A stretch of 60,996 nucleotides of DNA, counting the filler, from Hausera hauseri (taxonomy: Eukaryota), in NCBI GenBank assembly GCA_046269625.1. It is 11 parts of 11 records of this genome, joined end to end, with 100 filler letters (N's around TTAATTAATTAA, not from the genome) between each part and the next. Parts side by side here need not be neighbours in the genome. Positions count along the whole stretch, not along the records: positions 22,077 to 26,060 come from JBJURY010840302.1; 10 more parts are not named here. The stretch is one strand, 5' to 3'. The notes under the pieces are model-generated. The model searched no databases and was not told where the DNA came from. It was given only the letters and a program-made list of their open reading frames with translations. How positions within the stretch are numbered: the first letter of the stretch is position 1; each line of letters opens with the position of its first letter. Both the position numbers and the translations under genes were made by a program. This document shows, piece by piece, positions 170 through 49,719 of the stretch.

Positions 170-1914
170 ATGGTTAATAAAAAAGTGTGCAGGTCGTCCT
201 AAGAAAAGAACATTTCATGGTAGTAGATGGCAGCTAGTGTTCCCACAGCTAAAACAGAAAGCACTGATCCAAGTACTAGTGCTACTTCACAAAGCCTTAA
301 CAGTTTCACTTCTACAGACACTGTGCTTAATAATTCAGGCAACAGAAAATCTTCTGCATTTGATAAATTATCAAGAAACTCTAACTATGCAGATGAATTT
401 CAGGGTCAAAAAAGTATGAGTGGATTCAGACTTTTTGACATTCAGCAGTTCATTTCATTCATTCAGCAGTTGCCATGTCCACAGTGTTATACTCATACAG
501 ATAATGCATTTACAGTGTCAGAAAAATTAACTGGCATTAGTTCTGAATTGCACTTTCAGTGCACCATTTGCAAACATAAACTGACATTTAAAAATGAGGA
601 AAACATTAATTTGCGATTCCAGTTTGCCATGTATGGCATTGGTTGTCATGATCAGAAGAGTCGCCGCTTTTTAACTGCCATGAATATGCCACCACCAGTT
701 TCAAGTGTTCGATCAGCAGTTTACAAGGACCGTATTCTTCTTGCAACAAGGTCTGTAGCAGCGTCAAGTATGAGAAAAGCAGCATCTGAACTGAAAGACG
801 CAGAACAGTCAGATGAAGTGACAGTTTCCTGTGATGGAACTTGGCAGCGAAGGGGATTTTCCAGCAAAAATGGAATTTCAACATGCATGTCTGTTAGTCT
901 AAAAGCACCATCAAAAGTCATTGATGTTGAGGTCTTGACTAATTACTGTAACGCATGTGCACAAATGAACAAGAAAACACCTGACATCTTATTGGAATGG
1001 AAAGAACGGCACAAAGATGTTTGCAAGAAAAATCATGTTGGTTGTGCAGGCAACATGGAACCAGTAGGCCTGAAAAGAATCTTTCAAAGATCTATCAATG
1101 AATATGGCCTAACATACACTGGTTATTTAGGAGATGGAGATTCCAAAAGCTACAAAGAAATTGCAGAATCAGAACNNNNNNNNNNNNNNNNNNNNNNNNN
1201 NNNNNNNNNNNNNNNNNNNNNNNNNNNNNNNNNNNNNNNNNNNNNNNNNNNNNNNNNNNNNNNNNNNNNNNNNNNGTTGCTGCAAATAAAAGCAAATCAT
1301 TTATTGAAAATGGCAGAAAATATAAAGGAATTGGAGGAGTTGGAAGACTGACCAAAATAGCAATAAAAAGAATTCAGTATCATTATGGAGGGGCAATTCG
1401 ATCAAACGTGGAAAATTTAGACGCTAAGAAAAAGGCAGTATGGGCAATCTGGGAACACAGAAAAGGTATCCATGTCAATTGAGGAAGATGGTGGTATGGA
1501 AAAATTACAAATAAGCTACCAGACTTTGTTATGGAAATAATAAAACCTGTGTTTGAAGAGCTAAAAGTGATAATTTGTTACAAAAGTGTTTGCATGGTGG
1601 AACGCAAAATGCTAATGAAGCTGGGATAGATGCCCTAAACCACATTTGTTGGAAGAGACAGACTAGAAATACCTGTAAATGATGCTGTTATTGTATATAA
1701 TGAAGGGGAACTAGGTAGGACTGAAGTACTTAAGAAATTAGGACAAAGCTGAGGGTACCATACTATTTTAGGATTTCAGCATTTTGATCAAGCGCGAATA
1801 AGAGCAGCTGAAGAAGCAAATAAAGTGAATAAAATTATCAGGAGAGCAAGAAAGAGTGTTCAGACAGCTGAGGAATACCCTAAAGATGATTCCTATGGAG
1901 CAGGAGCTCACTAA
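170..1914 (+). pseudogene. Mutator-like/Kolobok-type DDE transposase (decayed), copy 1
   Basis: N-terminal CxxC motifs, DGTWQRRGFSSKNG, YLGDGDSKSY, HGGTQNANE, ends SYGAGAH* at 1914; frameshifts and stops plus a 100-N gap at 1176-1275. Superfamily (MULE vs Kolobok) not resolved by eye. Confidence 0.8.
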
Positions 1915-3299
1915 GCAAAGAATTATTTCTGAAACTAACATGGTAAGTACATTTTTTGCCTTTTTCTCAAAATTTGAATTTTTAACCAGTTTTATTCACT
2001 CTTTTAAGAATATTTCAAAAGATTCTCTATGTATTGTCTCCAAAATTGGAACATTTATAGGAGTGTTTCACATAAATGAGTATAACTTTTGAATAGTACA
2101 TATAACCCAAAAGATTTTAGTTAAGCCTATGTAAAACATAATGTCCTAATGGCATGTTAAATTTCATTAAGCTCTGAGTTTTTGTTTGTGAAATATTTTA
2201 GAATGTTGCTGAATATAAATTACGCTTTTTTCCGCATAAATTATCACATATTCAGTAAATGTTCTCCATAATATGCTGATTTTAGCCCCAAAAGTTATTT
2301 TTTCTTTAATAATTAACATGTATGTACATAATAAAATCAATGGTTTCAACAGATACAATCAAAATAAATTTGGGGGTTACAGCTGTTCTCAAGCACACTA
2401 GTAAGATATTTCCCCATTGTTCATATTTTTGTGTCTGTTTAGACAAGTAAAGTTTCTCTTCAGTGTAAATTCTTTTTATTTTTATTATTTTTTAAACTTT
2501 CAGCTATTATGTATAACCCAGTCGATTCATCATATGTTTTATCATAAATTCCCTCTCTCTCTTTCACTGCAACTTTAGCCCCTATGACATATGGAACTGC
2601 TATTGAGAAGAGACTTATAAAACTGTTGATCCTTTGATTCTTTTCTGGTTGTGCCCCAAGCCAGACTATTATCCAACATTCCTGGTCCAAATTAGAATTT
2701 AATTTTTTAACTGCACCAACTGCTTTATCTCTTATACAATTTTATTTTATTTTCACAACTGAATATTTAACGCATACATTTTTGAGATTATATTCATTTT
2801 TTTTTTAAATTTTTTTTTCTTAATTAAAATTAGTTAATATTTAGTTGATAAAAATGTAATTTTTAAAGCATTAAGGACTCAGTGCTTTAATGTAATCTCC
2901 CTTTGACTAGTACTCTGGGACACTGAGACTTGATCTCGTCAGGGCCAGGAACCAACATACTGGCCAAGACCTTTCAACTCTTCTATGCAGTGCATCCTGG
3001 AAACAGAAGCAATTCTGGCCAATGTTGGGGGATCGCCCATGGTCCCCATTTGAGAGGTGGATCACTTCTAGGAGGCCAAGCATTTCACTAAAGCCTGGAG
3101 GACCCCAGTCTACCCTACTAAACTCCACTGGAACAGCATGAATGCTCAATACAACTACTCCCGAGTCCTTCTTATGACTAGAGCCCTTATCAGAGCTCAT
3201 CCAGAAGAGCTGACGCTTGGTGATGAGGAGATCAAACAAGAACAAGAAAAAGCCTAGTACTCCAAGAGGTGTTTTGGAGCTGGAGATTAGTAATGATCA

Positions 3300-4126
3300 A
3301 GTAAACGATTTTTACAAGCGTGTCTCTTTTGTGCTCATTTAGATGACCACTAAGTGTCAATCTTTTACAACATACATCACACATGTAACATTTCTTCCCA
3401 GTTATGTTTTTTTTTGTGTGCTTGTTTAGATCAGACTTATCTGCAAACCTGACACAACAAACATGACACTTGTAAGGTTTCTCTCACATGTTTATTGTTT
3501 TATGAGTATTTATATGACTAGTGTTTATAAACACTTTACCACTGACATCACACTTGTAAGGTTTTCACCCCAGTGTAAATTCTTTTATGTGTCTTTAGAT
3601 TGCCATTAAGTATAAATCTTTTACCACAAACACCACACTTGTGAGGTTTCTCTCCAGTGTGTATTCTTTTATGATCATTTATATGACAACATTTTATAAA
3701 TCCTTTACCACAGACATCACATTTGTAAGGTTTTTCCCTAGTGTGATATCTTTTATTTGTCTTTAGCTCACCATTTTGTATAAATCTTTTACCACATACA
3801 TCACACTCAAACGATTTCTCGCCAGTGTGTATTCTTTTGTGATAATTTCGACTACCACTTTGTACAAATTCTTTACCACAAACATCACATTTGTAAAGTT
3901 TGTCCCCAGTATGAATTCTTTTGTGTTCATTCAGATGAAAACTTTGTGTGAAGACATTATCACACAAATCACACTTGAAAGAATCTACTGGTAGTTTACT
4001 AGTCTCAACATTCATTTCTCTTAATGAAAGTGACATTTTTTCTGTCTTGCACAATTCAGTGGGATCTTCATGTGTGTCGTAATTACTTGCTGTATTTTCA
4101 AGACAGACACCAGCACATGTTGACAC
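3300..4126 (-). pseudogene. Tandem C2H2 zinc-finger gene, frameshifted
   Basis: ORF 3548-4126 has 5 CxxC-x12-HxxxH units (two with a substituted His) and HTGEKPYKCDVCGK linkers; further degenerate fingers continue out of frame to ~3300. Confidence 0.85.
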
Positions 4127-9489: not shown

Positions 9490-12324
9490 AGACACAACAG
9501 CCTTTGATTGTCCTTCTCCTCCGTCTTCTCCTCCTTCATAGACACGGAGATAATCACCGCGGTTTATTTCCGTCTGTGCCAACTGAACTTCTTTTGCATG
9601 CATTTTCATTCCACAGTCCGTCAGAAGACTGTAGTACTTTGGGTGTAAAAATGTCCATTCCCAATACTAAACCCGACCTTCGCTTTCATCCTTGAAACAG
9701 CCGATTTTGTTTGTGATGGCGTTGCTGTACAATAGATAATTCTGCAGGTAATTGAATGTGTCGAGAAATCTATTTGCCATTATTTTCCGCAGTAGGTTGT
9801 TTGTAATTGACGTTTTTAAGTTTCAAGAAGAAACTATATGTGTCACCGGCAATTAGATTGACCTTGTATACACCAGAAATTTGCCGGTAACGTGCCAAAC
9901 CGCGATACTGCAACTTATACATTCGTAATTTACTAAGGTCAAATACCACATGTCCTATATAGCTTAGCCGGTCCAGTACGACTTCTTCCCTATTTAAAAG
10001 TACGGCAATCCACCGGAAATATGCATTGACCGCCTGAACTGAGCATATTGGTGTACGTGACCAACCGCTTTTCGCTATTGCATTTGACCAGCCGCTTTCT
10101 CAAATTCTTTACTGTTTTACCGTAGAGTGAATTGTTTTTCATCTTGTTATAGTCCTTTTCAAACTTTCTACAAGCTACATCTTGTTTCTCCGATTGCCGA
10201 CTGATGTATGCCTTGAATATCGAAATCTGATTGAATCGGATTGCGCGATGAAATTGTGTGACGCGTACACCCAGTTGCATGTAAAATTGCAACAGACCCC
10301 AATGAATAATATAATTTGATTTGGGTTCATTCGTCATAAGCAGCTTCTTCACTTTCGAGTCGGACGGACATTGGCTAATTGGTGCGACCGATAATTCATC
10401 CAGAAAGACATGCAGCTCATCTGGTACCACAAGATGGACTTCCATCAGGTATCCAATTGAGCTGTTCTCTGTCGTGTCTGTCCTAGGTAGATTTTCCATT
10501 ATGTCGTCTAGATATTGTCTGTAGACTATCCATTCGAATGAACCGTACAGCAAGGGTTGTGAAAGCGCCCAGTCATATAGGTTATTAATATCAATGTATA
10601 ACAGTGATGTGGTGTCATCACTGGTAGCAGCAGCACTAACATAGTGCTTGTTGACAAATGGCATGCCGCCACGAATACCAACATCAAATGGTCTGTAAAT
10701 TTCTGGGTCTTGCAACAGTTCGGTATCCCGATCCAGTGACATCAGGGCTGACGCCCAACTCATTCCCGGTATGGAATAAAAGTTGAGTGGCTCCTACCTA
10801 TCTTCTGTCAACGCTTTAGCTCGAAATGTCTAAAACACATACGCTAATAAGTACACGTCCAGTTTCAGATACTGAAGCATATACCCCAACAGGTTTCTGC
10901 ACCCGTGCTTTCTGCCAATCATCCTCTGTGGTACAGAACAATTGCGATGGCAAGTTTTCTGTTGTCTGAAGTCGCTCGTACAATGCCTCATAGTCGTATG
11001 AAAATATGCCTTTGCTATGTGAAATATGTGTGGAGAACTGTGTCAATGTTAGCGGCACATCTAGTAAGGCATTTACTAACTTTGTTAATGATTCATTCAG
11101 AAATTTCAATAAATTGGGAAAGCGTACCTGGAACCGGTTTATACGATCAGACAAGGATAGGTATTTCTCCATCGTTGTCGGAATTATGGGTTGTTCCCAG
11201 TGCGGAAATCCATTTGTCGCTCATTTTAAAACATGATGACAATGATAACCCCTGAAATTATGAAAGACCACTAATAGGAATGGTCGCACACGCTTTGCCA
11301 AATTGCATGAATTACATGCCGCTCCTAGATGTCGGCCGCTAAAATGATCGTGATCCGGTACTAGCTGCTCCTTTGCATCGAACGGTACTCTTTTGTGCGC
11401 AGGTAACATTTATCGGTGGCTGCAAACATCGCTATTACTTTGATACCACGGTGTGATTTCCGTTTCTACTATTGTTTAAAACTGATGTAGGAAATCGCGT
11501 ACGCAGTCCCAACTGTGGAAAACGTAGTACTGCGGTTGGCCAGTGGCTTCTATTGAGACAACCAACATACCAACAGCGATTGGAATGTGCTTTTGGTCAC
11601 ATACGTTGTGCTGTGGTAACATAACTTCAATATCAGTATATATCACATATTCCAGACTGCCCATTTTTGACCAGTCACTGAATCTAGGTCTCTTTTTAAC
11701 GGACATGACGTATATTGCTGTTTCCGTTGAATTCTGCTTACATAGTGTGAAACGTTTCTCCACGTTGTTTCTGACCTGAAATCATGCAGACATATGGGAC
11801 ACAATTTACACCGTATTTATTTTTGGATGAAGTGATCATGCGCCATGTTCAATAGTCTGTTAAAATTTGTCACGGCCACACAATAAAATTTTCCCTCCTG
11901 CTCTAACAGCAACAAGTTTACTGACTGCCTACTTGGGTTCAGACTTCGATAAACTATGTCAACATGGAAGTTCTTGTAAATTTCTTCATCTGCCGGTATT
12001 TCTACTATTGTACTGTACCGGAAAACGTTAACGGGCAGTGTCGGACTACGCCGATCAAAAGCCAGAATGGTTTTCAGTTTCATCGGCATCCAACTTTCAT
12101 CGAAATCCAATTCGGAAAAATACTGCCGATACTGACTTTGACAATATGCACTATGTCTGTCTATTTCGTCATATGTCAATACCGCCAGAATACTGTAAAG
12201 TAAACTTTATTCATCGTTCGTGTTTTGCACATTCACTACCGCATAATAGTGCTTTAGAGCTTCAGGTGTCCGTATGAATGACCGTCCGGACAGGTAAATT
12301 ATGTCACTCGACTTTGTTATTATA
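9490..12324 (-). pseudogene. Protein-primed family B DNA polymerase (Polinton/adintovirus type)
   Basis: DHDHFSG..GAACNSCNL, FHNFRGYH, GIRGG, YIDINNLY.WALSQPL, KMKNNSLYGKT, IAGDTYSFF, IGCFKDE, HPKYYSL; many frameshifts. Confidence 0.9.
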
Positions 12325-12424: not shown

Positions 12425-15400
12425 GGATCATATGCTTTCTTTTTTAAACTGATTGTCATGAACTGGTGGTGTTTAGTCCCAATTCGCTCCTGGTTCACCT
12501 CGGTGCTATAACCGGTTTCATAAGCCTGTATGTAGCTTTCGAATTGCAAGTTTGACTGCTTGAGTTGATCCCTTTGCATTTGAGGACTGGTGTGCATTGG
12601 GTTTTGAGGGCATCGAATTTCGGTCGTAGGAAAATTGCCTCTTGATACTGAACGCTTTCATTACTCTAGTCTTTAAATTTTCCTATTACAGGTGCGAAAC
12701 GAATCGAGTACAGCGGATCACTTTTATCATAGTTTGAAGTGTTCAACTGCTCGTTTGCTACCATTGCAGGTAAACGTTGTGATCTGAAATCAACACCACA
12801 GTATTCGATGAAAAAACTGTCTGTTTCACCGGCAACGATATTAAGTTCACAATCAAACTGTTGCCTATGTCTCAAACTCGTTATAATTCAGCTCATACAT
12901 GCACAACTTGGATAGATCAAGTACGGCCTGTCCTATGTATGAGGGCCTATCTAATGTAACCATATCTTTATCGAGGAAAACGAAAACCAGGTCATTATCT
13001 ATAATACTCTCCTTAAACTGTGGCTTGCTGGCGTATGTAATAAGCTTCTTAGCATTATTGCATGGTCTCAAGTTGGACCTTTTTAGAAGATTCTCAACAG
13101 TCTTACCATATAAGTTGTTGTTTTTAAGCTTAAAAAATCCTTCTCAAAAGCAATAATCGCTGCAGCTCTCTTAGCAGTATTTAAACCAATATAATGCTTA
13201 AATACATGACCCTGATCAAACTCAACAGCTCGATGAACCTTTTCAACTACAGCCTCTAACTCGATGTACAACTGTAATAGCCGATAGTGAATAACATAAT
13301 TGTACTGACGCTCGTGTCAGAAACAATCTCTTCACTTTGGAACCGAGGGGACATTAATTTATTGGAGCTAAAGGCAGTTGGTCTAATTCATCGTGCTTGT
13401 CCGATGGGACTATTTAATTGTCCCTTATCATAAATCCAAGTCAAATCCCAAATGGCAAAGGTTGAGATAAAGCCCAGCCGTACAAATCATTTACATCTAT
13501 ATACAAGAAAGTAGTGTTTTCATCAGTTATAACCCTAGGCTTATTTACAAAAGTCATACTACCGCGAATACCAGATTGAAAGAACTGATACATTTCAGGA
13601 TCCTGAATGAGCTCAATCTTACAAGGACTTGTTTTCAATGCTGTTGCCCAACCTAAACTTGGAATGGAGACAAAGTTAGTAGCCTCTAAACCATCCTGCA
13701 ACCTAACCTCCTTTCTAAACCGTTCAAAAACATCTAACAAGTATACGTCGAGCTTCATGTATACCAACATATAATCTAAAAAACAGTTACAACAGTATTT
13801 TGACCAAACCAGTTGTGCTTCCGCATAATCGTTATCAATAACACCATCCAATTTGGCTACGGTATATGGAAAAATACCTTTGCCCTTAATAATATCAGAA
13901 GGAAAAGCCGATTCAGTAAATGCGTAGCTATCTAAGTTGGAAGTTAAAATCTTCACTGAAACTGGTAAAAACTGCAATGAGTCTAGAAACTTAACAGAAA
14001 CTGACTTTTTATATGAACCCTGTATATTTGCCTGCATAGTCAGGAATTTTTCAGTAGTTTGAAGGATGACACTCTGGTTCCAAGTACTGAATTTACTTAG
14101 TGCGGGTTTTAAAATATGATGTAGGTGATAACCACGCAAGTTGTGAAACATGACTAGTAAATTATACCTGATTTTGCGAGCCAAATTACATTTGTTGCAA
14201 ACAGGGCCTAAGATTTACCCATAACGTGACAGTGATCTCGAACAAAATCCGACCCGTTTTCATGACAAAGATAACAAGCAGTGGCATGTTTAAAGTAATA
14301 CCATTCAGTTGGTGTTAACGGGATTGTTTTTTCGCATTTTCATGCCATGGGAAAGCATGTTTCTTAACAATTTCCTCCAAGCATGCCATAAACTCAACGA
14401 TAGAATTTTCACGTACAAATTGCCTATATTCAATACCTGTTGCAGACCCTAACAAGAGTCCGGCTGCATCAGGCAAATGAATATGCTTGACTTTGTCGTA
14501 AGGACACAGAATAGATTCAAAGTGAGCATATACGACGAAATATGGACTTATTGACTTTGCCCAATCCTTAAATTCACAAAACTTATTTTCGGGCATTTTT
14601 TGCAACGTAACGCATTTGGAGTTAGACATACACATTGGGAAGTGTTTTGCAAAAGCAGTATCGTACTAAAAGCCATGCAAACATTTCTCACACCAATGTT
14701 TACATTGAATACGGATTTTCGTACTGTTCATATTCAATAGTCGATTAAGATTGGGAACAGCTACGTAGTGAGTTATCATTAATCTTCAAAATCAATAAGT
14801 TAACTACAACACCATTTGGATTTTTGCTGCGATACCAAATATCAACGAATGGATTTTTTGCAATATCCTCATCAAAGTCAACATCATCCTCATCGTTAAA
14901 CAAAAAGACATTAATTGACAACTGCGGATTCTGCCTCTCAAATTTACCTATATTGCACATTTTTATCGGCATATTATTTAAAGAATATTTTAATTCACCT
15001 AAGTATGGGGTGTAATTGCTAACTCTATTTCTATTCCTATGAGTTTCAAAACGTGAATATTTCGTCACTGCAAGAATCGAATATAAGAAACACAAATTGT
15101 CCTCATTCTGCATGTTAATAACGGCCATTGCATTTTTTAAAGCGTCAGGTGTTGCAATTTACGACTTACCAGAGGAGTAGGGTAGTGAGCTTGTTTTGAC
15201 TATATGAAAACAGTATTTCAAGATCGTAACTATCTTCCATCCACTACCCATTTCAGCAAAATTCTCAATTTGCCCCTGCAAGTTATCAGCAAAAGATTGG
15301 GAATAGGCGTGCTCATAAGGGACAGCTCTGTGAAATATAAGACGGCTTAGTATCACTCTCAACATTCTCAAACAGAATCTCAAGACCGTACTGAACCTTA

Positions 15401-15482: not shown

Positions 15483-17136
15483 TCGCTCCTGATCCACCAT
15501 GGTGCTGCAACCGATTTCATAAGCCTGTATGTAGCTGTCGAACTGCAGATATGTTTGTTTGAGATTTACACCCTTGCATTTGAGCACTGGTTTGTTTTGG
15601 GTTTTGAGTGCACAGGATTTCGGCCGTAGGAAAATCGCCTCTTGATACTGAACGCAGCCCTTGTTCTCGTTTTTAAATTTGCCTATTGCAGCTGTGAAAC
15701 GAGTCTAGTACAGCGGAGAACTTTTGTCGTAGTTTGACGTATCTAACTGCTCGTTTGCTATCATTGCCGGTAACAGTTGTGATCTCAAATCAACACGACG
15801 TTTGATGAAAAAATTGTCTGTGTCACCGGCAACGATATTAAGTTCACACTGAAACTGGTGCCTATACGTCTCCAAGTCGATATAATTCAGCTCATATTCG
15901 TAACTTAGATAGATCAAGTACGACCTGACCGATGTATGAGGTCCTATCTAAGGTGACTGTCTTTATCGAGGAGAACGGCTGTATTAATGCTCTCTTTAAA
16001 CTGGGCCTTACTAGCATATGTATCTAGCTTTTTAGCGTTATTACACAGTCTCAGATTTGATCTATTCCGCAAGTTTCAATAGTTTTTCCGTATAAGCTGT
16101 TATTTCTAAGCTTAAAATTCTTTTTCAAAAGGATTATTTGCTGCAGCCCTCTTTGCAGTTTTTAGATCGATATAATCCTTAAAGACATAACCCTTATCAA
16201 ACTCAACGGCTCGATGTACCTTTTCAACTACATTGTCTAACTCGATGTACAACTGTAAGAGCCGATAGTGAATAACATAATTGGACATACGATCATCTGT
16301 AAGCAGCAATTTCTTAACTTTTGAACCAGGGGGACATTGATTAATTGGGGCTAGAGGCAATTGGTCCAACATATCATGTTTGTCAGCTGGAATGCTTAAG
16401 TCGACTTCAAAGACTAAGCTTCGTTTTTCCGTGACACAGTCAATATAGGGCAATTGTTCAATTAAACTGTTTAACTTATTCTTATCATATATTCATACCA
16501 AATTTGCAAATGGCAGTGGTTGCGATAAAGCCCAGCCGTACAATTTATTTACATCTATATACAACAGACTGGTGCTTTTATCGGGGACAACTCTATGCTT
16601 ATTTACGAAAGTCATACCACCGCGAATACCCGATTGAAAGAAATGATACATCTCAGAGTCCTGAATTAGTTCAATACGGCACGGGCTTGTTTTCAGTGCC
16701 TTTGCCCAAGATAAACCTGGAATAGAAAGGAAATTAACGGCCTCTAAATCATCCTGCATCTTAACCTCCTTTCTAAACCGTTCAAAGACATCGCCTAACA
16801 AGTATACGTCGAGCTTTATATATACCAACATGTAATCCAAAAGACAGCTCCAACTGTATTTCAGCCCAGCCGTTTGCGCTTCCTCATAATGGCTGTAACT
16901 AACATCATCCCATTTCGGTGGCAACTCTTTAATAGACTGCAAGTCACTGAAAGATTTGGCTGCAGTATATGGAAAAATACCTTTTCCTCTAATAATGTCA
17001 GGAGGAAAAGCTTACTCAATAAATGGATAGCTATCTAAGTTCGAAGCTAATGTTTTGAGTGAAGCCGGTAGAAACTGTAACGAGTCGAGAAATCGAATAG
17101 ATACAGGCTTTCTAGCTGAACACGTATCATTGCCTG
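15483..17136 (-). pseudogene. pPolB copy C2 (C-terminal portion), head-to-tail with C1
   Basis: FLDSLQFL, KGIFPY, GIRGGMTF, YIDVNKLYGWALSQPLP, AGDTDNFF, FLRPK, KCKGV; clearly homologous to C1. Confidence 0.92.
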
Positions 17137-21610: not shown

Positions 21611-22080
21611 ACGACTCACTTCTATTAGTTTTGCTGCAATTTGAGAAATAATATCCATTTAGCTTGTTTTGTTTAACAAACCATTTTTCACAAACGCATT
21701 CAACCGCTAACGCCAATAGTAGTAGGAAGTTTATTTGCAATACTTTACACAGAACATGTTATCGTCATTTTAAGTTTTCTAACGATAATGAACTACAATC
21801 AGTAACCCAATTACTCTAAAACTGATTGTTAGTAGATCGCGTATCTACCATTCCGACCTCAACGTCATTCGATGATTGTAAGACTGAATTAAGCATTAAA
21901 AATTTATTATAAAAGTTGGTATAACAATTAGCTCATTCACTCATTAAATGAGTCTTGTTTTCATCCTTTTTGGAATNNNNNNNNNNNNNNNNNNNNNNNN
22001 NNNNNNNNNNNNNNNNNNNNTTAATTAATTAANNNNNNNNNNNNNNNNNNNNNNNNNNNNNNNNNNNNNNNNNNNNGGAA

Positions 22081-24014
22081 ATGCAATGTCAGAACGAGCA
22101 GTTATTACGTACGTACATTTTTTGCGTTATTTTTATATACTTTGAGTAATTTTAGGTGAAATTACACAACTGCGCGAAAGGATAAACAGGGGTAACATGA
22201 TCCCTTGCAACGAAATCAAACAGCATCAGAAAGATACATTATTTCGCGTAGATCTGGAAGATATCGTGAATTCACTGCAATCCAAATACGTGAAATCTGT
22301 TAAAGACTTCCCTATACNNNNNNNNNNTTGTTTTAGAAACCAGAACGTCATGCAAATTGCCGAAACTACATGGCAGTTTTTCCGTGAGATCTTATAATAT
22401 TTGGTAACCCTTGGTATTACGTGAATAAAATGTGTGACGTGTTTGAAGCACGTACTACGTACGTTCGATTGCAGGAAGAGGTAAATCCCAAGGGGTTTCA
22501 CCGTTTGCATCTCATCCATCTGAAAATTCCAATCAGGCTACATACCTTCTGTAATGCATTTCGTGCAAGATACGCAATACCAATCAACGATAATTTATAT
22601 GAAGTAATCATTTTTTTAATTTAATCAATTTTATTGTTTCTATATTTACCGCAACAACTTGAAAAAGACGTTTGATGGAGCGACTGTCCCTCAATGGGGC
22701 GTTTGCCCCATTAATATAATGAAGGATAAAACGTTTAAGAAGGCGATGAATCGGCAATTCACCGATGCGCCTTCTTATGACGATGCGCTGGGCACTATCT
22801 TTCAAGGTATTATTTTCTGAATTTTGTTAACCGATTTAATTAATTTTAGCTGACAGGCAAAAATATGTTATCAAGCATAATCAACTAAAGTTTCCTGCAT
22901 GGACAGTTCCAAAACGAAGTGGTGGTCCATTCCAGAACGCAAGTTCCTGATTGACCCAATTCCGTTCGATTGTAGCATCAATCGAAATACTGGCTTATTG
23001 TTCGGTGCTAGTGGAATTGGTAGATTTTTGTCAGATTGATTAATTAGGTTAGTTTAATTTTAGGAAAATCAGCTTTCGCCAAGTCCTATGGAAGTGCCCG
23101 AAGGTGATGCATAACCTATCAGATCTACCTGAAACATGGGATCGAAAGTGTGATATACTCATTATGGACGATATTGGATTCTACAACGTAAATCCTGATT
23201 TGTTCCTAAGTATCCGCCATTCTGAGGATAATGAACATCATTCGTTTGGAGTAAGATGTAGTTATTACTTAATATGAGTTTAATTGTTTTAGGCCTGTTT
23301 AAATTTGTCCAAATCCCACGGGACGTGCCAATGATCATCACTTACAATGAAGAATCTACCTTTTGGCCTTCTGGCATGGGATCAGTGTAGCGGGAAGCAG
23401 TAAAGCGCCGCTGCTTCTATTATAATCCTGGCACTGTAAGATTACTTTGATTATTTTAGTTAATTAACTTTGGTTTAGCATGCGGTTTAAATCGGATCGT
23501 CTACGGAATGCTTGTCTCACTGATAATTGTATCGATTTTGAGAAAACCACTCGTGAGAAAGCTGCCAGGAAAGCCGAAACTGCGGCAGCTGCAGCAGCTA
23601 TTTAAGCTCAGGATGAGGCAGAGTTACTATCTCTGCAAGAGACTCGTGTACTAGCTAAGTGGTCGAGGATGTACTCCATTGGCGGCCGCCTGCTATCGAG
23701 TATACACCAATCAGCCAATTCAGCCAACAGTCACTCCCGGCTTTGCCCTACCAGGACCCGGAGTACAAGCGTCGTAAGCTTGAGCTCCAAGCTTTTAATT
23801 TTGATGTACCGCCGCAAAATGACGCTTTTGAGCTCAGTCAGCATGATGTTGACGATAAATTGGAATTGTATATTTTTTTCACTTTAATCAACTATTTTTA
23901 GAACTGAAATTGTACTGATAGCGTTGATCTGGACGCTGATATAAATGGCATTCATCTATCAGATTTAGACATTACCTCTTTAGATTTACAGTATATTGAT
24001 ATACTGCCGTTGTA
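22081..24014 (+). pseudogene. rep: Spliced CRESS/geminivirus-like Rep (HUH endonuclease + SF3 helicase), ~9 exons
   Basis: Motif I-like RNYMAVFP, motif II-like GFHRLHLIHL, degenerate motif III (NIMKD), Walker A GASGIGKS restored by removing intron 23020-23063, Walker B ILIMDD, B'/C VQIPRDVPMIITYN, Arg-finger AVKRRC; a few stops and frameshifts. Confidence 0.85.
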
Positions 24015-24130
24015 ATTTTTTATATAAATAATTGTATAATTTTTGTATATTATTTCTTGTTACCGCCTTGTAATTTAGTTCTAATATGATTTTTTAGACT
24101 ATATTGTTACGCGCCTATGTAATACTTTTA

Positions 24131-24835
24131 TTATGAAAAACCATGATAACTTTTGTTGTATAGAAACATCCACTCCATCAACGCAGTTTCACTAAAGTTA
24201 TTCGGTCCGATTGATTTAGGAATATTTCTTTGCTTTTTATTCCAATTCCGTGTTGCTTACTGTTCGTTGCGTATCTGCATCAGAGCTACACCACGAGATT
24301 TTCTTTTCCATTTAGCAGTCAAACTTACTATTAAGCACTGATCTTTCGGCTTGTTATCATTTGGTATAGGATAAAACGGAGTATCATCATTGTTTTCTAA
24401 GTTGAGATTATATGTAACTTTTGAATTATTTAATACCTGTAACAATTTGTGAGTCTGCTATCATACTCTCAAAATTACTTGGAATATTTGCACATTATAC
24501 GCATGGATTGTACCTGTCCATATAGCAGTGGACCAGTCTATCTCCTAATACGGCATTGAACGTTGAACCACCGAGCATGTGCTAGTACTCCTGTTTGAGA
24601 TTGGATTAGTATTTCATCCATTGGATCCGACTGAAATATTCCTGTTGACATTGTAATTTGTGTTAGCTTGTCTTCGATGTTGTATTTGACTGCCATTTCG
24701 GCGTATATTTTAGGACGTTTCGTATTAATAATGTACAATCATCCAATGTTTTAAAAGAAACAAAATGTGGCTCAAAATTCAAATTTTTACACCTACCTAA
24801 GAACCATGCAGTACGCCTGCTTGTATGTATCACTT
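24131..24835 (-). pseudogene. Spliced unknown gene convergent with rep (capsid candidate)
   Basis: 42-nt GT-AG intron 24437-24478 joins ..HAYNVQIFQ to VLNNSKVTY.. in frame; stop at 24131-24133 overlaps AATAAA. Confidence 0.5.
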
Positions 24836-25003
24836 ATGTAACTGTCATCCATCTCCGCCCTATTAACCGTGTATGTGCATCGTTTTTCTACCCCGTGACT
24901 CATTCCGAACCACTTCTTTTCCTTCCGTCCCTGGGAGAGGGAGGTTGGCGAGATGTGCTCCCTTCTATCTGCTCATGTCTGATAATAAAGTTGATTGATT
25001 AAT
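24825..25003 (+). mobile_element. Probable 3' end of a 5'-truncated L2/CR1-like LINE
   Basis: Hairpin GAGGGAG..CTCCCTTC followed by AATAAAGTTGATTGATT tail. Confidence 0.4.
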
Positions 25004-25009
25004 CAGGAC

Positions 25010-26060
25010 CGATATAATCTTAAAAAGAAATTTTTTTCTCCAATGTAGCTCGTTGAACATCTTTAGCCCGTTTCTCTATTTCTCCATCAACAACAAGGGC
25101 ATACATTTTTGGTCGAAGTCCGACATAGGCAGTAATAATCTTGCTGTTAACTTCATCATTAAATTTTCCTAAAACTTTTTTATTTGACAAGGAAAAGTTC
25201 TTATGGTCTCTCGGATAATCTGATGTATCAAAGAAATTTGCCAAATTATAAAAATCATTGAATATATCATCAGACCTAATACGATATATGAATGAATCGG
25301 TATCTACATACATTAATTGAATGTCTGGAAATTTGACTTCTTGATATTATAGTGAAAGTCGAACATGGATGTTTTTAACAAATGAAGTATCGACATACCA
25401 ACATAAATCGGCTTGCTATTTTTCAGAATCGTGTTTGGCATTTTGATACTAGCAAAATTTTCGAAATACAGAGTGCTATGTAAGAAATTAGGCTTTTGCA
25501 TTAACTTTTTCGCTCTTGTCCAGTTGTTGACCAACTCAATTGACAGCCTGTTTATTATATTCACTATAGATTTTCCAAAAACTGAGTTGCTGTATAATTT
25601 GAATTGATCTTTTTCAAATTTGTTTGTTGCATTTGCTCGAAGATCTGTGTTGAATTTAATAAGGTTGAAGACATTTGAATTGACTGAACTGCAAAGCCCT
25701 ATGCACTTTGGTGACAATGAGACCATTACGAATAGCCTGCTGCAAATTTATGTAATGTACTACATGTCGTTTCATTTCACCCAAATGTGTTAATAATTTC
25801 CTGAATTTTCCGCCAGGTGGTTTTCCCTTTCCATAGGAAAGGCAACTAATCATGTTCTACATGTTGAAGCCAATCACGGTGAATATCTATCTCAAAGATA
25901 TATCCCGTTTCAGCGTCATCAGTAATGCTCATAATATCCATACTATCCGTATGATCTACCTATTTAAAATTATCGTATTGGAGGCTGAGACTCATTGCCC
26001 AACCGTACAAGTTGTTTGCATCCAGATATGTGATTAAAGATAATGGTTTTGTTTCATCCT
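25010..26060 (-). pseudogene. pPolB fragment (Maverick/Polinton type, distinct from the contig B and C copies)
   Basis: NNLYGWAMS..LQY, KLYSNSVFGKS, PIYVGMSIL, YVDTDSFIY, FDTSDYP, GKFNDE, GLRPKMYA. Confidence 0.92.
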
Positions 26061-31252: not shown

Positions 31253-31625
31253 NNNNNNNNNNNNNNNNNNNNNNNNNNNNNNNNNNNNNNNNNNNNTTAA
31301 TTAATTAANNNNNNNNNNNNNNNNNNNNNNNNNNNNNNNNNNNNNNNNNNNNCGAATGCTATTTTACTGTATTGATTGAATTGACTCGAATCGAGGGTAT
31401 CAAGAATATTGAATTAATTGCCGCACAGCTTCTTGATATTGCTATCCGAGTTCCTACTGTTTGAGAATTCACTGTGAAACAAATGGCAAATCTGCTGCAC
31501 ACATTTGGCAATTTATTAACTAATGCTAAGCAGTCTGGTATCTGCGAAATTGGTGGTCGAAGGATACACAACTGGTGCCAGGTAACATTTCTTGCAACTA
31601 TCATTACACAACTATTACTTTATAA

Positions 31626-32645
31626 ATGCTTTCCGTCTAAAGTCGTTTTCATACATATCGGTCAGTTTGGTGTGCAGCGCGCCAGTGCACTGTGGGAATT
31701 ATTGTGTCTTGAACACATTAATGATCCAGATGGACTAAAAGCATTAAAAGATAATGATTTAACTGACGAACTTGACCAAACGACAGCATTATCACAACCA
31801 GTAAACCACTATAAGTTGAATCCAAGAGCAATACTTGGCGATTCAGAGCCCATATGCATAAATAATTTTAAGATTAGTGCATGTGGAAATATTTCTAGTA
31901 GAGAATTAATGATTACTAAATGTGAAGATTCCGGTAGCAATTTTGCTCAACGAAGTCTCAATTTTGGTGTACGATTAATAAGATTGTTTCCACCGCGGCT
32001 ATTTAAACTAGCTGAAATAACGAATAATTGGGATGAATTTATCGTCATAAACAGTATGAGTGGTGGTACAAGGTCTAGAATTGGTGCGTTGATAATGCCG
32101 CAATTAGCCGTTGATTAACCCAAAACAAACCGAATGCAAATGGCATTATTCCCCAACCCGATAATGTCTACGGCGACTGTTGAACCATACAATAGCGTTT
32201 TCCATAGTCATACAACACTAGATAAGTGTGATTTGTCTATACCTTTTAATAATGAGGCTCTTTATGACGTTTGTAAATATCTATTGTTCAGGAATTCACC
32301 ATATTATTCTAATCTCAATCGAATAATACCTCTAATGCTTAGCTCATCTACAGCATCAGCGCAATTTGAAACAACGATAAATTATTTTTTGAAAGAAATA
32401 CATACAAATTCAATACCGTATCAAAGGATACACCACGCAATAATGAGACATTCTCCAATTCTGCACGAAACACGATTTAAGTATGCCAGTCCATCGGGCG
32501 AACAAATTATAAGGAGTCTCCTCGAAAGATCGCCCAACGATTAAAACCGACTTAAATAAAGAGAAATTCATATCGATTGTTATGAACTATCGAGGTGAAG
32601 TTAAGCCTAGAGATGTCATGATGGCAATTCAGAAATGCCGAGCAA
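31626..32645 (+). pseudogene. Highly divergent, intronless alpha-tubulin pseudogene
   Basis: IHIGQFGVQRASALWELLCLEH, PRAILGDSEP, EDSGSNFA, SMSGGTRS, STATVEPYNSV, NEALYDVC, YSNLNRII, YRGEVKPRDV; in-frame TAA at 32116-32118; truncated by the adjacent Gypsy. Confidence 0.9.
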
Positions 32646-42500: not shown

Positions 42501-42764
42501 GGGACAATGAAAACTTCACGATTTAAATGATCTAAAAGCACTCTTCCAGACGAAATAGTAATTGATAGAATTATGATAGACAGCACGATGGAAGAATTAA
42601 GGAAAGTTTTGATACATTTAGCAGTGGGAACCAACCCTCTTCGGGAAAACGAATTTTACAAGGCAATTGGATTATCTAGAAAAGCTGCGAGAAAGATTTC
42701 CAAAGAAATAAAGTGGACTAAATTGTTTGAAAAAGTAAAAATGCAAAAGGGACTAATAAGTTAG
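39536..42764 (+). pseudogene. Long decayed ORF region of an env-bearing retroelement (ubiquitin-like domain, AT-hook)
   Basis: Chain of same-strand ORF fragments; Ubl-like TTVGDIKQWIMDKDG/YRLYFRGRILDELESLIDVGI at ~41890-42110; KRPVGRPRK at ~42290-42320. Confidence 0.6.
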
Positions 42765-42769
42765 AAGAT

Positions 42770-45244
42770 ATGATACGAAATATTTCTTTAAATAAAGGTA
42801 ATGAATCCAACTGGTTAGTCAATCTGATGACAATAATGATGTTAATAAAACAGCTAGGAGCAGTCACTATATACAACTGTGATAAATTCAAGATAAGTCA
42901 AAGATATTCTCTAATGAATCTGGAAGCGTGTGAATATGCAAGACCACACAAGTTAGAAATGAGGGAGAAAAATTACTTCTTGTACCAGCAACAAGATCTG
43001 ATATCGTTAGACGGAATGGAATGCATGTTGCAACGATTTTGCAGTATTTTTCACTGTGGATTAATGCACGGACATTCTTCGATAATCAAACCAACAACTC
43101 CCCAAATTCCCATGAAATTGGAACGGCAGCACTGCAAACAGGCTAAAGAGACTGGAAGAGTACAATGGGACAATATGGAATTAAAAATGCAAGCTGTAAA
43201 AATAATTAGGGCATACAAAGTAGTAGCCGGAAGGTTAAACATGCATAATGGACACTGTAGTGGAGCTGAATACGATACTGGTAAGGGCTTAGAACCAAAT
43301 GTAGTAGTTCTGGATTTCTACGAATCAGAAATGAGAACACAGAAATTAATGTTTCATAGCGTCAACAAGTTATATACGGAGAACCAGAAATGTCATTTAC
43401 AGGATGGAACCTGTGCCTTTAAGAGCTCAGTTATAATATGGGAACCTCCCTCAGGAAGAAGTTGTAATTTTATTAAAATCAAAGAACTAAAGTTTAATGA
43501 GACCACCGGGAAACGATACGTGCATAAATTGGATACCAATTCAAGGACGCGCGAGGATGTATTAGAACATTCTACGCCCACCATATTAATCTCCGATCAA
43601 CACGGACTAAAATTTATCAAGGAAGTGATGTCACGTTGTGATGTGGTAATGTTTGCTACTATCTACGAAGCATTCTTCGTAGCCGAAACTGAGATAAATG
43701 CAAGGACTTATAAGTTGGAAACACAAGATATCAGGATTGAGGACTATCTGAAGAGACGATTAGTTTTATTACAAAGAACAAACTGGAATAACTGAGTTAT
43801 ACCACAAAATGATAACGAACGACTGTAAATTTGATACTGAGATCATGAGGACAAAACTGGCTCTTATATATGCCAATCCAGAACTGGCTTTGCCAATAAT
43901 TCCTATGAGATAGGGAATCTTTTGTCGAGTTACAGGCGAAGTACTAATAACTTACGAATATGAAGAGATGTACCCATCAATGTAGAAGAGAAATGTTGCA
44001 TCCAGGAATTTCCTGTCATCTATCAGAACACTCCTAGACTAGCTATACCATTGACGAGAGTATTATTGGATAATGCAACCCAACCCACTATTTTAAGATT
44101 GTAAAGCGAGCTTAGGAGAGCCCATGTTTAGGCGTAGTGAGACAGACTGGGTCAGTTTACCGAATGGAGGTATTACTGCTACCCCAAACAAATTAACAGG
44201 GACATCTTGCGAAAGGAATTACGTACGATAAATTTCAGGATACTTCATCGAAAGGCATATATAGGCCTAAGGAGATTGAAGCCTTTAGATAATTCCTCGC
44301 TTTTCCACAACGAACGCATGAATTAAACCGAGCCATGGCTTCTGTAGTAGACGATACCCGATATCAGGCTAAGTGGGAATCTCTACTTCGCACTAATCAC
44401 TACCAAAGAGTAACTTCAGAAATATTGTATAAGATTTCGGGAAGATTTTTAATTTTCGGACAAGCTGTATTTGGATTCTTAGCCATCTACTTAGTTCAGT
44501 TATTTAAAGCAGTAATACAAGCTATCATCAACGGATACGAAATATTCACATTAACCGGATTCTCCTGTAAGATTTTAAGTGCAATTATTACACTTTGGGA
44601 TAATGCTCAAGGCCTACGAGGAAAATCGATGGAAAAATGATGTAGAACGCCATGTCGGATACTATAATCGCAAGCGACGAGGAAAACTTTCGATTTTGTA
44701 TAGACGGAAAAATAAGACAACAGTAACAACTAAGGATGATTCAAGTGATGACGAGCCTAAGGGAGAAGTGAATTCCAGAATGAAGATGCGCAAGATGTAT
44801 TCAGTAATTAACGCACTGTTACCTATCATGCCGCCAACAGCACCAATATATGAAGACTAACCGCAAATCAATCGTATCATGTCGGTCCGAGATCTATCAA
44901 AAACCGTTTAATTACGAAGATCCTTATGAAAAAACAAAACAATATGGAGTACTACGGAAAATGAATGTTATCCACCAAGGATCAACAGAAATCGACATGA
45001 TGCTTATGTACCTTTTATTTTACCCCAATGTCAATCATGGAAAAATTTATACTGGGCAAATGTCAGTAAACCCATCAGCCCCTCGGTATATGGAACATGG
45101 AGGGATGTATCTCACGTATCAAGTTTTGTAAATGAAACAGAATTACGAGGAAAATCCCATACCATAAAACTGCGAACCCACATGTAAAACGAGTAATAAG
45201 AATGGGCCCCAACCCTTTATGAAACCAGGTAAGTAGTAGGATTG
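42770..45244 (+). pseudogene. env: Chuvirus-like glycoprotein (env) with TM segments and cytoplasmic tail
   Basis: Signal-like WLVNLMTIMMLIKQLGA, then IYNC..YSL..C, HCGLMHGHSS, CHLQDGTC..IIWEP, RVTGEV, EFPV, PLTRVL; TM FLIFGQAVFGFLAIYLV. Confidence 0.75.
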
Positions 45245-45344
45245 NNNNNNNNNNNNNNNNNNNNNNNNNNNNNNNNNNNNNNNNNNNNTTAATTAATTAA
45301 NNNNNNNNNNNNNNNNNNNNNNNNNNNNNNNNNNNNNNNNNNNN

Positions 45345-48300
45345 TCATGAACTGACGTTCGATTGACGAAAACACATGCATTGATGTATTCGTCCCAGTC
45401 ATCTTGCCTAGTATTTACTACTGTTTGTAATTTTCCCTTCAAATCTCCAATATATCTCTCAACCATTCCATTATTCTCCGGATGTCCGGGCGTTGACCGC
45501 AACTTTAATATTTTCACAATATCATATATGGACTGCATCACTATTCCCGTCAAATTTGATGCTTGATCGGTCGAGAGGATTCTCGGAGCTCTATAATTGA
45601 ATACTATGCTTTCCACGAATCTTTTAGCAATTGTGTCTGCCTTCATGTCAGGCTTTGGTAAGGCAACCACCCATCCGGTGGAATAATCGATGAATACCAA
45701 TATATACTTATTTCCATTTTGTGTTAGTGGTAATGGTCCCGTTATATCCATAGCGGTAAACTCAAATGGTGCTGGAGGGTTGTCCCATACTTTTAATGGT
45801 GCTTTGAATTTCGATCCTGTGTTTTCCGTGTAGAAAACAGTTTACAGCTTTCACACAATTCCTGCACGTTTTTTGTTATCCGTGGCCAAAAATATTTTCG
45901 TTTTAATTTGCTTGATGTCTTATTAGCAGATTGATGTCCTCCAAGCAATCCATCGTGGTATTGCGTAAGCAGAACTGCCCTATTTTTCTTAGGAATTACT
46001 AATGCGGGTTTGTTTTGAGTAATAAAATATAAAAATCCTTCCTTCTCCTCGTATGCTTCGCTGAATTGAGGCAGGTGACGAGTTAACTCTCTATCAACTG
46101 GCACGGTCTTACCTTTTATATATTTCCTAATGGCTCTTGTTTTTTCATCTTCATTCTGATTTGCTTTAATTTTCTCAATTGATCCATCCATACTCCATAC
46201 GGCTGCAACTACTGCTTTCGTTTCAGTTTTGTCGGGTAATCTCGATAGGTAATCGGCATTGGCATTGCGCGTGACAGGCTTGTATTGAAAATTTAATGTA
46301 TACTGTTGTAGCTTCAGGGCCCATCGTAGTAATCTACTATTCGGGTTTTCATGCTGTTTTAGCCATTGCAGTGGTCTATGGTCCGTATAAATTACAAGCG
46401 GTTTATTTTCACTAATATACGGTAAAAACATTTCCAAGGCGAATATCACCGCTAATAACTCCTTTTCTGTTATAGCTTATTTCTTTTGATGTTTATTAAG
46501 TTTTCGTGAAGCATAGGCTACAGGATGTTCCTTCCCATCTTTACCCTTTTGTGACAATACTGCTCCTAATCCGTAATCACTTGCATCTGTTGCCAGAATA
46601 AATGGTTTGGTCATGTCTGGATATATCAATATAGGAGCCGTTAATAGTCTATCTTTTAAATATTCGAAAGTTTTCTGACATTCGGTAGTCCAAATAACCT
46701 TATCTAAATCTTCACGTAATAACTCATACAAAGGTTTTGCGATTTTACTAAAATCCTTTATAAATCTCCGGTAATAGTTGGCTAGTCCTAGGAACTGACG
46801 GAGTTCTCTCACTGTACCAGGCTTAGGAAAATCCTTTATTTTTCCTAAGAGCTTGTCCTGAGGTTTTACACCATGTCTATCTACTTTATGCCCGAGAAAA
46901 TCCACCTCTGATTGTGCAAACGAACACTTCTTGGGGTTTATCTTTAAGCCCATTATTTCACATCTATCGAAGAGATCTTGCAAATCCTTTAAATGTTGAT
47001 GAAAATCTGATGACGCTATTATTACGTCGTCTATATATACCATGACGTGTGGAGCGTCTAACAGCAGGAGTTCTGTTCCTCTCTGGAACGTTGGAGGTCC
47101 ATTCTTTAGTCCAAAGGGCATCCTATTGAACTCCCATAACCCTTGTCCAATTGAGAAGGCTGTCTTCGGCTTATCTTCTTTTTTAACTTCCACTTACCAA
47201 TAACCTTTTTATAGATCGATGGTTGTAAATATAGTTGATCCATGTAGTTTATCTAGTATCTCGTCGATTCTTGGTAATGGGTATGTATCTGTTTCCGTTA
47301 TTTCATTTAGGGCTCTGTAGTCTATGCAAAATCTCATACTTCCGTCTTTCTTTTTAACCATTACTACCGGCGCTGTCCATGGTGAGCAGCTTTGCCGAAT
47401 TATCTTATTCTCTCTCATCTCCTTTATTATTCTACGGGCTTCCTGTTTCTTGTCATATGCCAGCCGGTATGGTCTCTTCTTAATTGGTTTGTCTTGTCCA
47501 TCCTTCAATTTGATGACATGCTGAATTACCTTCATGGTACCAAGGTCATAATCGGTTTGTGCAAATCGACTGGCATTCTTTTCTAGTAATTTGACTAACA
47601 TTTCCTTTTCTTCCTTGCTTAAAATTTCGCATTTTTGCAACCTTTCATTCCAGTCAATATTCGTGGTTTTACTTTGTCTTTTATCCTCACTCATTTTCTT
47701 CAGTTTCTCTGTCATCATCTTTTCTATTTTATCTACGTCTGATATTACTGAATAGGTCTCATCTTTTATTATTTCTTCAGTTATCGTTACCTTTCCCAAT
47801 TTAGTATTTTTCCGTAATCGCTTTTCTCTATTTGTTGCATTGCAAATTCGTAAGTGGATTTTTCCTTCCCTTACTTTATCGACGTGCGGGGCAATTAAGA
47901 CTTCGTACTTTTCCATAACTTGTGGAAATGGTTCGAAATGAATAATTTCCGGTAGTGTTCGGCTTTGTATTTTTCCGGGTACTATTATCTCGGATCGTGG
48001 TGGGATCGTAATGTCCCTCGTTAATGAAACCATTCCTTCGTTACGATCTTCGCTGAACGTCTTCAGTTGACATGTTTTCATGTCTCTGTATGCGTCCTCC
48101 AATTGATTCAATACGTCACACCCGATTAGAATTTCATTAGTCAGATTATCGGCTATTCTTATCGTGTGTTTCAGGGTTTGTTCACCAATCTTAATCTTGG
48201 CATCTAGGACCATTTTGATTTCCTCTTCTGTACCAAATGCTCCTACATTTACCATTGTGATAGTTGGTTTTCTTAACTTCTTTCTTAACTCTTTTGGCAA

Positions 48301-48420
48301 TTGGCTCTTGCCCATTATTGTCGTTGTAGATCCTGTATCTAACAAAGCCATCATGGGGTATCCGTTCACTTCTATTTCTATTTCGGGTCGTATCGGTGGT
48401 GGTCGTTCGGTTTTATCATT
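45345..48420 (-). mobile_element. pol: Gypsy pol: PR, dUTPase-like-fold spacer, RT, RNase H, integrase
   Basis: [45 protein letters not shown] zinc motif, MDITGPLP, STDQASN. Confidence 0.97.
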
Positions 48421-49719
48421 AATTGTATATGTAGATTCACGCTTATGGGGGACTGCATTTTCGTACATACTTTGTTTCATCTGTTGCACTTGTTGTATAG
48501 GATACAGTTCTGCATGTCCTACATATTGGGGAGCTGAATAATTTATTAACGTTTGCTCGTTATATAGTTGCCCGTGGTATTCATCCGCAGGATCCAACTG
48601 AGGCAGGTCAGTTATTAATTTTTGTCTATACTTGGACTTTCGTGTCTTTAACATTAAGTGTTTAATGCTAGGTATTCGTTTCTTTACTTTCATTTGGCTA
48701 TACTCAGCATCATTATCATCCGGTATACTATATAAGGATTCTTTTATGTCTTTCCTCTTTAGTATCTTCCTCTTCCATCGTGCATCATGGTTTGCTAAGA
48801 AACAACTTGCTACTGCCGGTATTACCGCTATTAGAATTTTCCATGAGCATCCTACTGCGGCATGTATCCCATATGCTTTACCTAGTGCCGTAAATACTGT
48901 TCGAAGGGCACTAATTATAAAATATATCGCTAGAAAACCGGAAGCGGCTTGACCAAAATATAAGAACTTGCCCCACATCTTTTTCATTACGTTTTTCGTC
49001 ACCTTCTTTAAATAGTCCTTACCAATAAGGTTTTCCCACTATGGTGATCCTTCGCCATCCCACATAACTCTCCTTGTCAATTCCGTTATAACCCTCTGTC
49101 TATGCTGTGGAAACAGCAACATACGTCGATAGTCTTTTAGATTTTGCTGTGCGTAGATTTCTCCTTGCGATATTCCAGTCAACGGTTCAAATTTCTGATT
49201 CCGTTGTAAATTAATTAAACTCAATGTCTCTGGTTTGGATACTGATTCTATTTTTGGCATCCTGATCTATTTATCGTTATCAATCTTGAACATGGGTGAC
49301 ATATTAAAGGTACAATTATATAGAGACGTTGGCTTCACGTTATTATCTAATAATATTCTAGTTACTGGGATCACGTATCTTGGTTCCATATGGTACATCA
49401 CAAGTAATTCCATCGTGCATTCTTCTGTTGGCCTAATTGATACTTCCACTTTTGTACATTCTATTGTTATTAAAACTTCGCCCATTATTCTGCCGATAAT
49501 TCCATCAACGAAGGCATTACAGGCGCTACCATATCCGGGTTCGTTATTACCAGCGCCATTTTATTACGCATTATTTCGTAATTCAGCTTGCACTCTTTCA
49601 TTATTATTTCACGATATAGACCTCTAACTTCTTTTCTTACGTAATTGATTAAAAAATCAATCTTATTGTAGAAATATTGCGTCAGTTTTATCTTTCTTAT
49701 CTATTTTGGTTTTCGCCCC
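48421..49719 (-). pseudogene. env: Env C-terminal half, contiguous and in frame with PR-RT
   Basis: Homologous to 43750-45130 ([28 protein letters not shown]); single ORF 47209-49002 spans TM, tail, protease and start of RT. Confidence 0.85.

Follow-up and report, generated by a model that had tools for sequence, protein, structure and literature searches.

We identified a decayed minus-strand gene that converges on a decayed, intron-rich rep gene of the CRESS type in the genome of Hausera hauseri. The pair sits in a ~4 kb contig (22077-26060) of the window, the 60,996-nucleotide stretch of joined contigs. Our best explanation, which we hold at about even confidence, is that the minus-strand partner was the capsid gene of an integrated, decayed and intron-rich CRESS-type virus, a role assigned by its position and size. 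This copy is defunct, and its assignment as a capsid gene is not proven. The preliminary description of the locus had proposed an endogenous two-gene, intron-containing ssDNA-virus-like unit in which the partner encodes the capsid. The helicase half of rep and the existence of a decayed minus-strand gene uphold the unit; the capsid identity received no direct support, as none of the capsids tested resembled the partner in sequence or by profile, and its fold was uninformative. That description had also overlooked the pseudogene state of both genes and the foreign-repeat origin of the 5' splice donor.

Table 1. Coordinates of the rep-partner element and its flanks (window positions; rep introns are inferred from sequence).
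Feature	Position	Strand	Remarks
Decayed CRESS-type rep	22077..24015	+	5' end at assembly gap; several stops and frame changes; Ala-rich and acidic C-terminal tail
Rep intron	22109..22155	+	47 nt, GT..AG
Putative nuclease exon	22337..22603	+	His-rich motif II-like stretch by eye; one in-frame stop
Rep intron	22807..22849	+	43 nt, GT..AG
SF3-type helicase exons	22850..23435	+	Intron-split Walker A, Walker B (MDD), motif C (IITYN), RR finger
Rep intron inside Walker A	23020..23063	+	44 nt
Rep intron	23251..23292	+	42 nt
Rep intron	23436..23478	+	43 nt
Rep intron candidate	23868..23901	+	34 nt
Spacer between the two stops	24016..24130	.	115 bp, 79% AT
Partner gene, last exon	24131..24436	-	101 codons; one in-frame stop 24259-24257; final TAA overlaps AATAAA
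Partner intron candidate	24437..24478	-	42 nt, GT..AG, phase 0, two adjacent stops
Partner gene, upstream exon	24479..24714	-	~78 codons; frame change near 24540; 5' end not found
Very high-copy repeat, outside the element	24775..26060	-	Holds GTAGGT 24796 and a decayed Polinton-type DNA polymerase B fragment

The decayed rep gene has an SF3-type helicase half and predicted short introns

The helicase half of rep scored 32.8-33.3 bits against a profile of eight viral Reps, compared with 4.9 for the best of 300 shuffles. A motif of this very rep gene had served to retrieve the eight Reps; the alignment nonetheless spans profile positions 113-291. Walker A, Walker B, motif C and the Arg finger, which mark the SF3 helicase of a Cressdnaviricota Rep, are all visible in it. 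The nuclease half gave no score against the same profile, and Pfam was blank on its short, decayed exon pieces. The putative HUH identity therefore rests on the His-rich stretch seen by eye, and inspection of the exon by eye found neither an intact HUH triplet nor a clear YxxK. On 12 pieces of rep and partner (31-93 aa), Pfam returned no match to Viral_Rep, Gemini_AL1, Circo_capsid or Gemini_coat, the domains looked for as marks of the Circoviridae, Geminiviridae or Genomoviridae; the shortness and decay of the pieces make this a weaker test.

Six complete GT..AG introns and two partial ones interrupt the gene. A pattern drawn from these introns has 12 matches in the window, six of them within 22109-23436, a count that is circular by design. 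Beyond the helicase, rep runs on (23480-24015) through an Ala-rich and then an acidic tail of ~170 codons, which could be a transactivation-like region and has no equivalent in the viral Reps fetched. The acidic stretch is closed by TAA 24013-24015; because the nearest splice does not lead directly into its frame, this stop is the likely, rather than certain, end of rep. Just beyond it, in the spacer, a T-rich stretch of 45 nt (24034-24078, plus strand) with GT..TTTAG ends fits the rep intron pattern, and may be an intron in the 3' UTR or a chance match.

The minus-strand partner is a truncated pseudogene

The minus-strand stretch 24131..24714 is a decayed gene, beyond chance. Crossing 24714-24134 takes three events on the minus strand versus seven on the plus strand, and 15 of 1000 dinucleotide shuffles equalled the minus strand. 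Among the six frames, a codon-position model built from the rep exons ranked that of the partner first, a value reached by 38 of 2000 shuffles; the frames for these tests were picked by the analyst, which makes their significance slightly optimistic. As first described, the partner stop (TAA 24133-24131) overlaps an AATAAA and faces the rep-side TAA across a short AT-rich spacer.

An in-frame join of two exons across a phase-0 intron with a CTCAC branch-like motif had been proposed for this gene. The intron candidate itself survives inspection: the GT..AG ends, the phase and the CTCAC (at 24453) are present, and the reading frame is identical on its two sides. The clean spliced frame does not, since the frame changes near 24540, at stop 24540-24538, and a further in-frame stop follows in the last exon. 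These two breaks mean that an intact spliced product is absent from this copy. In length the stretch agrees with five of the six complete rep introns (42-47 nt), and we consider it probably an intron, spliced by the host. Its composition differs (31% T and 67% AT, versus 48-56% T and 77-83% AT in the six complete rep introns), and it lacks the TTTAG ending seen in them.

The 5' end of the gene is missing. An AT-rich tract without an AG precedes the upstream exon. The GTAGGT reported as another donor near 24796 is present in the sequence, but it belongs to other DNA, a repeat of very high copy number, and lacks a usable acceptor: down to 24700 a single AG follows it, 26 nt away at 24771. No Arg-rich N-terminus is seen in what remains. 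The partner is thus a 5'-truncated pseudogene of about 180 remaining codons, a length typical of the jelly-roll core when the basic arm is not counted.

Four peptides had been quoted from the partner as alternating, beta-strand-like segments. All four were found, but RWFNVQCRI is read in a separate frame from the other three, with the stop at 24540-24538 in between. The claimed alternation did not hold up, as the periodicity was not beyond chance (263 of 1000 shuffles) in a test of low power that just 2 of 12 putative capsids passed.

The spacer carries AAGTATTAC on the minus strand (24127-24119). We rejected this candidate as a replication origin: it forms no stable hairpin (z -0.83) and occurs at chance frequency, with 11 matches in the window versus 12 expected. 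The element lacks both of its 5' ends.

Related copies cover both genes, and a foreign repeat cuts off the partner

Summed contig depth in run X1, which is not equivalent to copy number, was 97-477 over parts of rep, 17-122 over the partner and 6-8 over the rep tail and spacer, a pattern that related copies of both coding parts would produce. Variant X1 contigs inside the partner carried an insertion at 24408 and a 94-base skip. One X1 contig spans 23619-24180 without differences (X1 has a share of 0.80 and may be the source sample); therefore, the rep-partner junction is real, and not an artefact of this assembly.

From ~24775 onward, the X1 depth exceeds 8,000, against 17-122 in the partner; at 24775 itself, the loose ends of 44 contigs coincide. 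The start of this very high-copy repeat (24775-24870), which is also found in run X2, cuts off the partner gene. Apart from one 238-base piece of rep, run X2 (share 0.09) contained mostly the high-copy repeat. The polymerase fragment in the repeat (~25020-26060) is one that we take, from its motifs, to be a Polinton-type DNA polymerase B. A Polinton- or bidnavirus-like unit that includes this adjacent polymerase was rejected on the jump in depth at 24775, from about 100 to >8,000, and on the 44 loose ends. The window holds four such decayed fragments on the minus strand (25020-26060, 9993-10793, 12880-13298 and 16078-16315), and similarity to rep or partner was absent at the other three.

The window as a whole consists of short contigs with N-padded linkers, packed with fragments that are, presumably and by their motifs, gypsy-type and Polinton-type, together with others. 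This content and the size of the introns suggest that the host is an invertebrate. At 45296-49038 (minus strand) and 42731-43792 (plus strand), gypsy-type pol pieces lie beside ORFs of 609 and 354 codons that, by eye, look envelope-like. On the plus strand, 31465-32541 carries divergent reading frames that, again by eye, resemble alpha-tubulin and include a stop; they are a probable pseudogene.

The partner resembles no known protein in the collections searched

Judged by sequence comparison, the partner is an orphan in the collections searched. Three partner pieces had no Pfam match below E 0.1, PHROGs and NCBIfam held nothing credible, and a PDB sequence search returned eight designed PPR repeats and no significant stretch. 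A word-index protein search, whose length windows did not take in exon-sized short proteins, yielded no real match among 11 candidates for the partner or three for a rep exon. When the first 66 partner codons were run with HMMER against 1.84 billion representatives, two matches appeared, both of them tandem-repeat artefacts. Peptide scans of viral contigs were equally empty for a partner piece (0/16 candidates) and a rep piece (0/29).

Direct comparison with capsids gave the same answer. Against three small capsid profiles, 80, 206 and 204 of 300 shuffles did as well as the partner in HMMER, as did 4, 59 and 7 of 60 in hhalign. None of 12 putative capsids was similar in pairwise comparison (best z 1.65), and 446 of 500 shuffles equalled the partner against a profile of four circovirus-type capsids. 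A scan for capsid motifs led to 15 loci, none with a CRESS capsid. The order of motifs, by eye, had suggested a likeness to circovirus-type capsids; this failed every statistical test and is retained as a lead only. A single-sequence model of the first 58 partner residues, with two helices (pLDDT 64, pTM 0.28), is unreliable and uninformative, and does not support a capsid.

Viral and metagenome contigs with similar Reps

Motif scans led to 108 viral and 70 metagenome loci, and a Walker A scan to seven. Of 11 small viral contigs with a similar Rep and a second large ORF, nine are ambisense. Pfam confirmed a capsid in one of the five second ORFs tested; the remaining ones were called capsids by position and Arg-rich starts. 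The confirmed case, L073, is the best-scoring of the ambisense contigs, with a Gemini_AL1 Rep and a convergent Circo_capsid in Pfam. Its two genes (175-2002) pair a Gemini_AL1-type Rep with a circovirus-type capsid, making it a chimeric CRESS genome.

An intron-bearing Rep was found in one of the 70 metagenome loci, L160. This CRESS-type Rep (1726-3796, plus strand) scored 82 bits against the eight-Rep profile and contains, by eye, four intron-like GT..AG stretches. Upstream on the opposite strand (~700-1500) lies a stop-riddled, divergent gene, which showed no significant similarity to capsids. The word-index search with the L160 Rep returned its self match alone among 515 candidates, and peptide scans of viral contigs with it gave 0/16.

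A candidate capsid gene and its alternatives

The ancestor of the element would have been a circle of ~3 kb from which host RNA polymerase II made transcripts off either strand. From each transcript the host spliceosome would remove introns of host size, and the two would receive their poly(A) tails within the AT-rich spacer that they share. Replication would be of the rolling-circle type, with Rep nicking and unwinding the circle, and the partner would form the capsid that encloses it. After integration, stops and frame changes would have piled up in both genes, and an unrelated high-copy repeat would have replaced the 5' end of the partner and any origin beyond it.

In favor of this explanation, we counted the helicase score, the gene-like minus strand, the convergent stops 115 bp apart with an AATAAA on that of the partner, the matching intron length, the ~180 codons, the 9/11 ambisense viral contigs, the X1 depth pattern and the difference-free junction contig. 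Against it, we counted the missing capsid, Pfam and protein relatives, the two-helix model of 58 residues, the lack of an Arg-rich N-terminus, the differing intron composition, the lack of an origin hairpin and the scoreless nuclease half.

The partner could instead be a non-capsid accessory gene of a nuclear, capsid-less Rep replicon or rolling-circle transposon, a nuclear existence that would account for the many introns and multiple copies. Capsid similarity is absent in every test, the 6-8 introns and long tail are unlike the unspliced Reps retrieved, and run X1 contains related copies, all of which fit such a replicon. However, capsids often diverge past recognition, the convergent two-gene layout is usually viral, as the ambisense contigs attest, and neither terminal repeats nor a transposase were seen in the 22077-26060 contig. 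The accessible portion of Liu et al. 2011 (PMC3198968) lends this alternative precedent, proposing self-propagating Rep copies and describing Rep-bearing transposons. We consider it unlikely.

Another alternative, which we judge quite unlikely, takes the partner for a decayed gene without ties to rep, from the host or from another mobile element, that came to lie beside it by chance in a repeat graveyard. The window is densely filled with nested gypsy, Polinton-type and other fragments, the partner intron differs in composition from those of rep, and the spacer and rep tail match this copy alone in X1. Yet rep and partner have each kept their 3' end, the two being opposed across a neat, terminator-like spacer, and no host or transposon homolog was found in Pfam, the word index or the 1.84 billion representatives. 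The depth of the partner, about a thousandth of that of the adjacent polymerase repeat, places it outside the polymerase repeat family, and the other three polymerase fragments of the window have no such gene nearby. That there is no gene, and the open stretches arose by chance in AT-rich DNA, is very improbable: three breaks must be assumed, no search found a homolog and the significance is modest, but few shuffles attain the observed values, the stop lies within an AATAAA, and related copies cover the partner stretch and not the spacer.

Returning to the capsid gene, we tentatively extend the proposal, with rather more doubt, to an invertebrate lineage of circular ssDNA viruses whose rep and capsid genes alike contain many introns of host size and whose capsid is unrecognizably divergent. 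If true, ORF-based virus discovery would not see such an intron-rich lineage, of which L160 would stand as another, distant case. Searches for CRESS viruses look for long ORFs of Rep and capsid, and would pass over a lineage with 6-8 introns (42-47 nt) in rep and one in the second gene; in the large protein collections searched, neither the rep-partner element nor L160 has a relative. In the available part of Liu et al. 2011 (PMC3198968), endogenous Reps are common and capsid remnants rare (302 Rep versus 3 capsid sequences), and a preserved two-gene junction would tie the lineage to its host. Should the partner not be a capsid, the element suggests a Rep-helicase replicon that carries an uncharacterized accessory gene.

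Comparison with known systems

The rep genes of mastreviruses and genomoviruses are spliced, with one intron per rep, and the host spliceosome builds Rep, as we propose here; by comparison, this rep has at least six introns, one in Walker A, and the second gene has one more. The planarian element PEVE also has introns. Unclassified CRESS-DNA viruses with a Gemini_AL1-type Rep (IMG/VR L073, L004, L021 and L024) share the order and spacing of the SF3 motifs and, mostly, the ambisense two-gene layout. Each of their genes is one intronless ORF of 290-380 aa, whereas the rep described here has 6-8 introns and a long tail, its nuclease half has no score and its partner matches none of their capsids. 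We take these viruses to be probable members of the CRESSV6-like group (Kazlauskas et al. 2019). The motif definitions and CRESSV6 are covered in the accessible part of PMC6668415.

L160 resembles the present element in having a CRESS-type Rep cut by intron-like stretches and a decayed gene on the opposite strand. It differs in that the helicases are 32% identical over 95 aa, the introns are longer and at other sites, and its partner lies upstream and divergent, whereas the one described here is convergent; the two have no detectable kinship (best blastp E 3.1).

Endogenous CRESS elements of invertebrates, as presented in the available portions of PMC3198968 and PMC6186406, are likewise integrated and degraded, with multi-copy rep and an occasional capsid remnant; a two-gene, multi-intron fossil of the present kind is not described in those portions. 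The word 'intron' is absent from the text seen of Liu et al. 2011 (PMC3198968), while the corresponding part of Rosario et al. 2018 (PMC6186406) flags intron-interrupted Reps and reports a tapeworm cyclovirus element with a partial capsid. In the literature searched, which took in few subscription journals, and main texts only, we found no account of a CRESS fossil with two genes and multiple introns. Replitrons (Craig 2023, PMC10288648), to judge from the accessible part of their description, are intron-containing eukaryotic elements with a CRESS-related Rep, and in both respects they resemble the element described here. Their Rep has no fused helicase; the helicase is present in this rep, which therefore falls outside the Replitrons.
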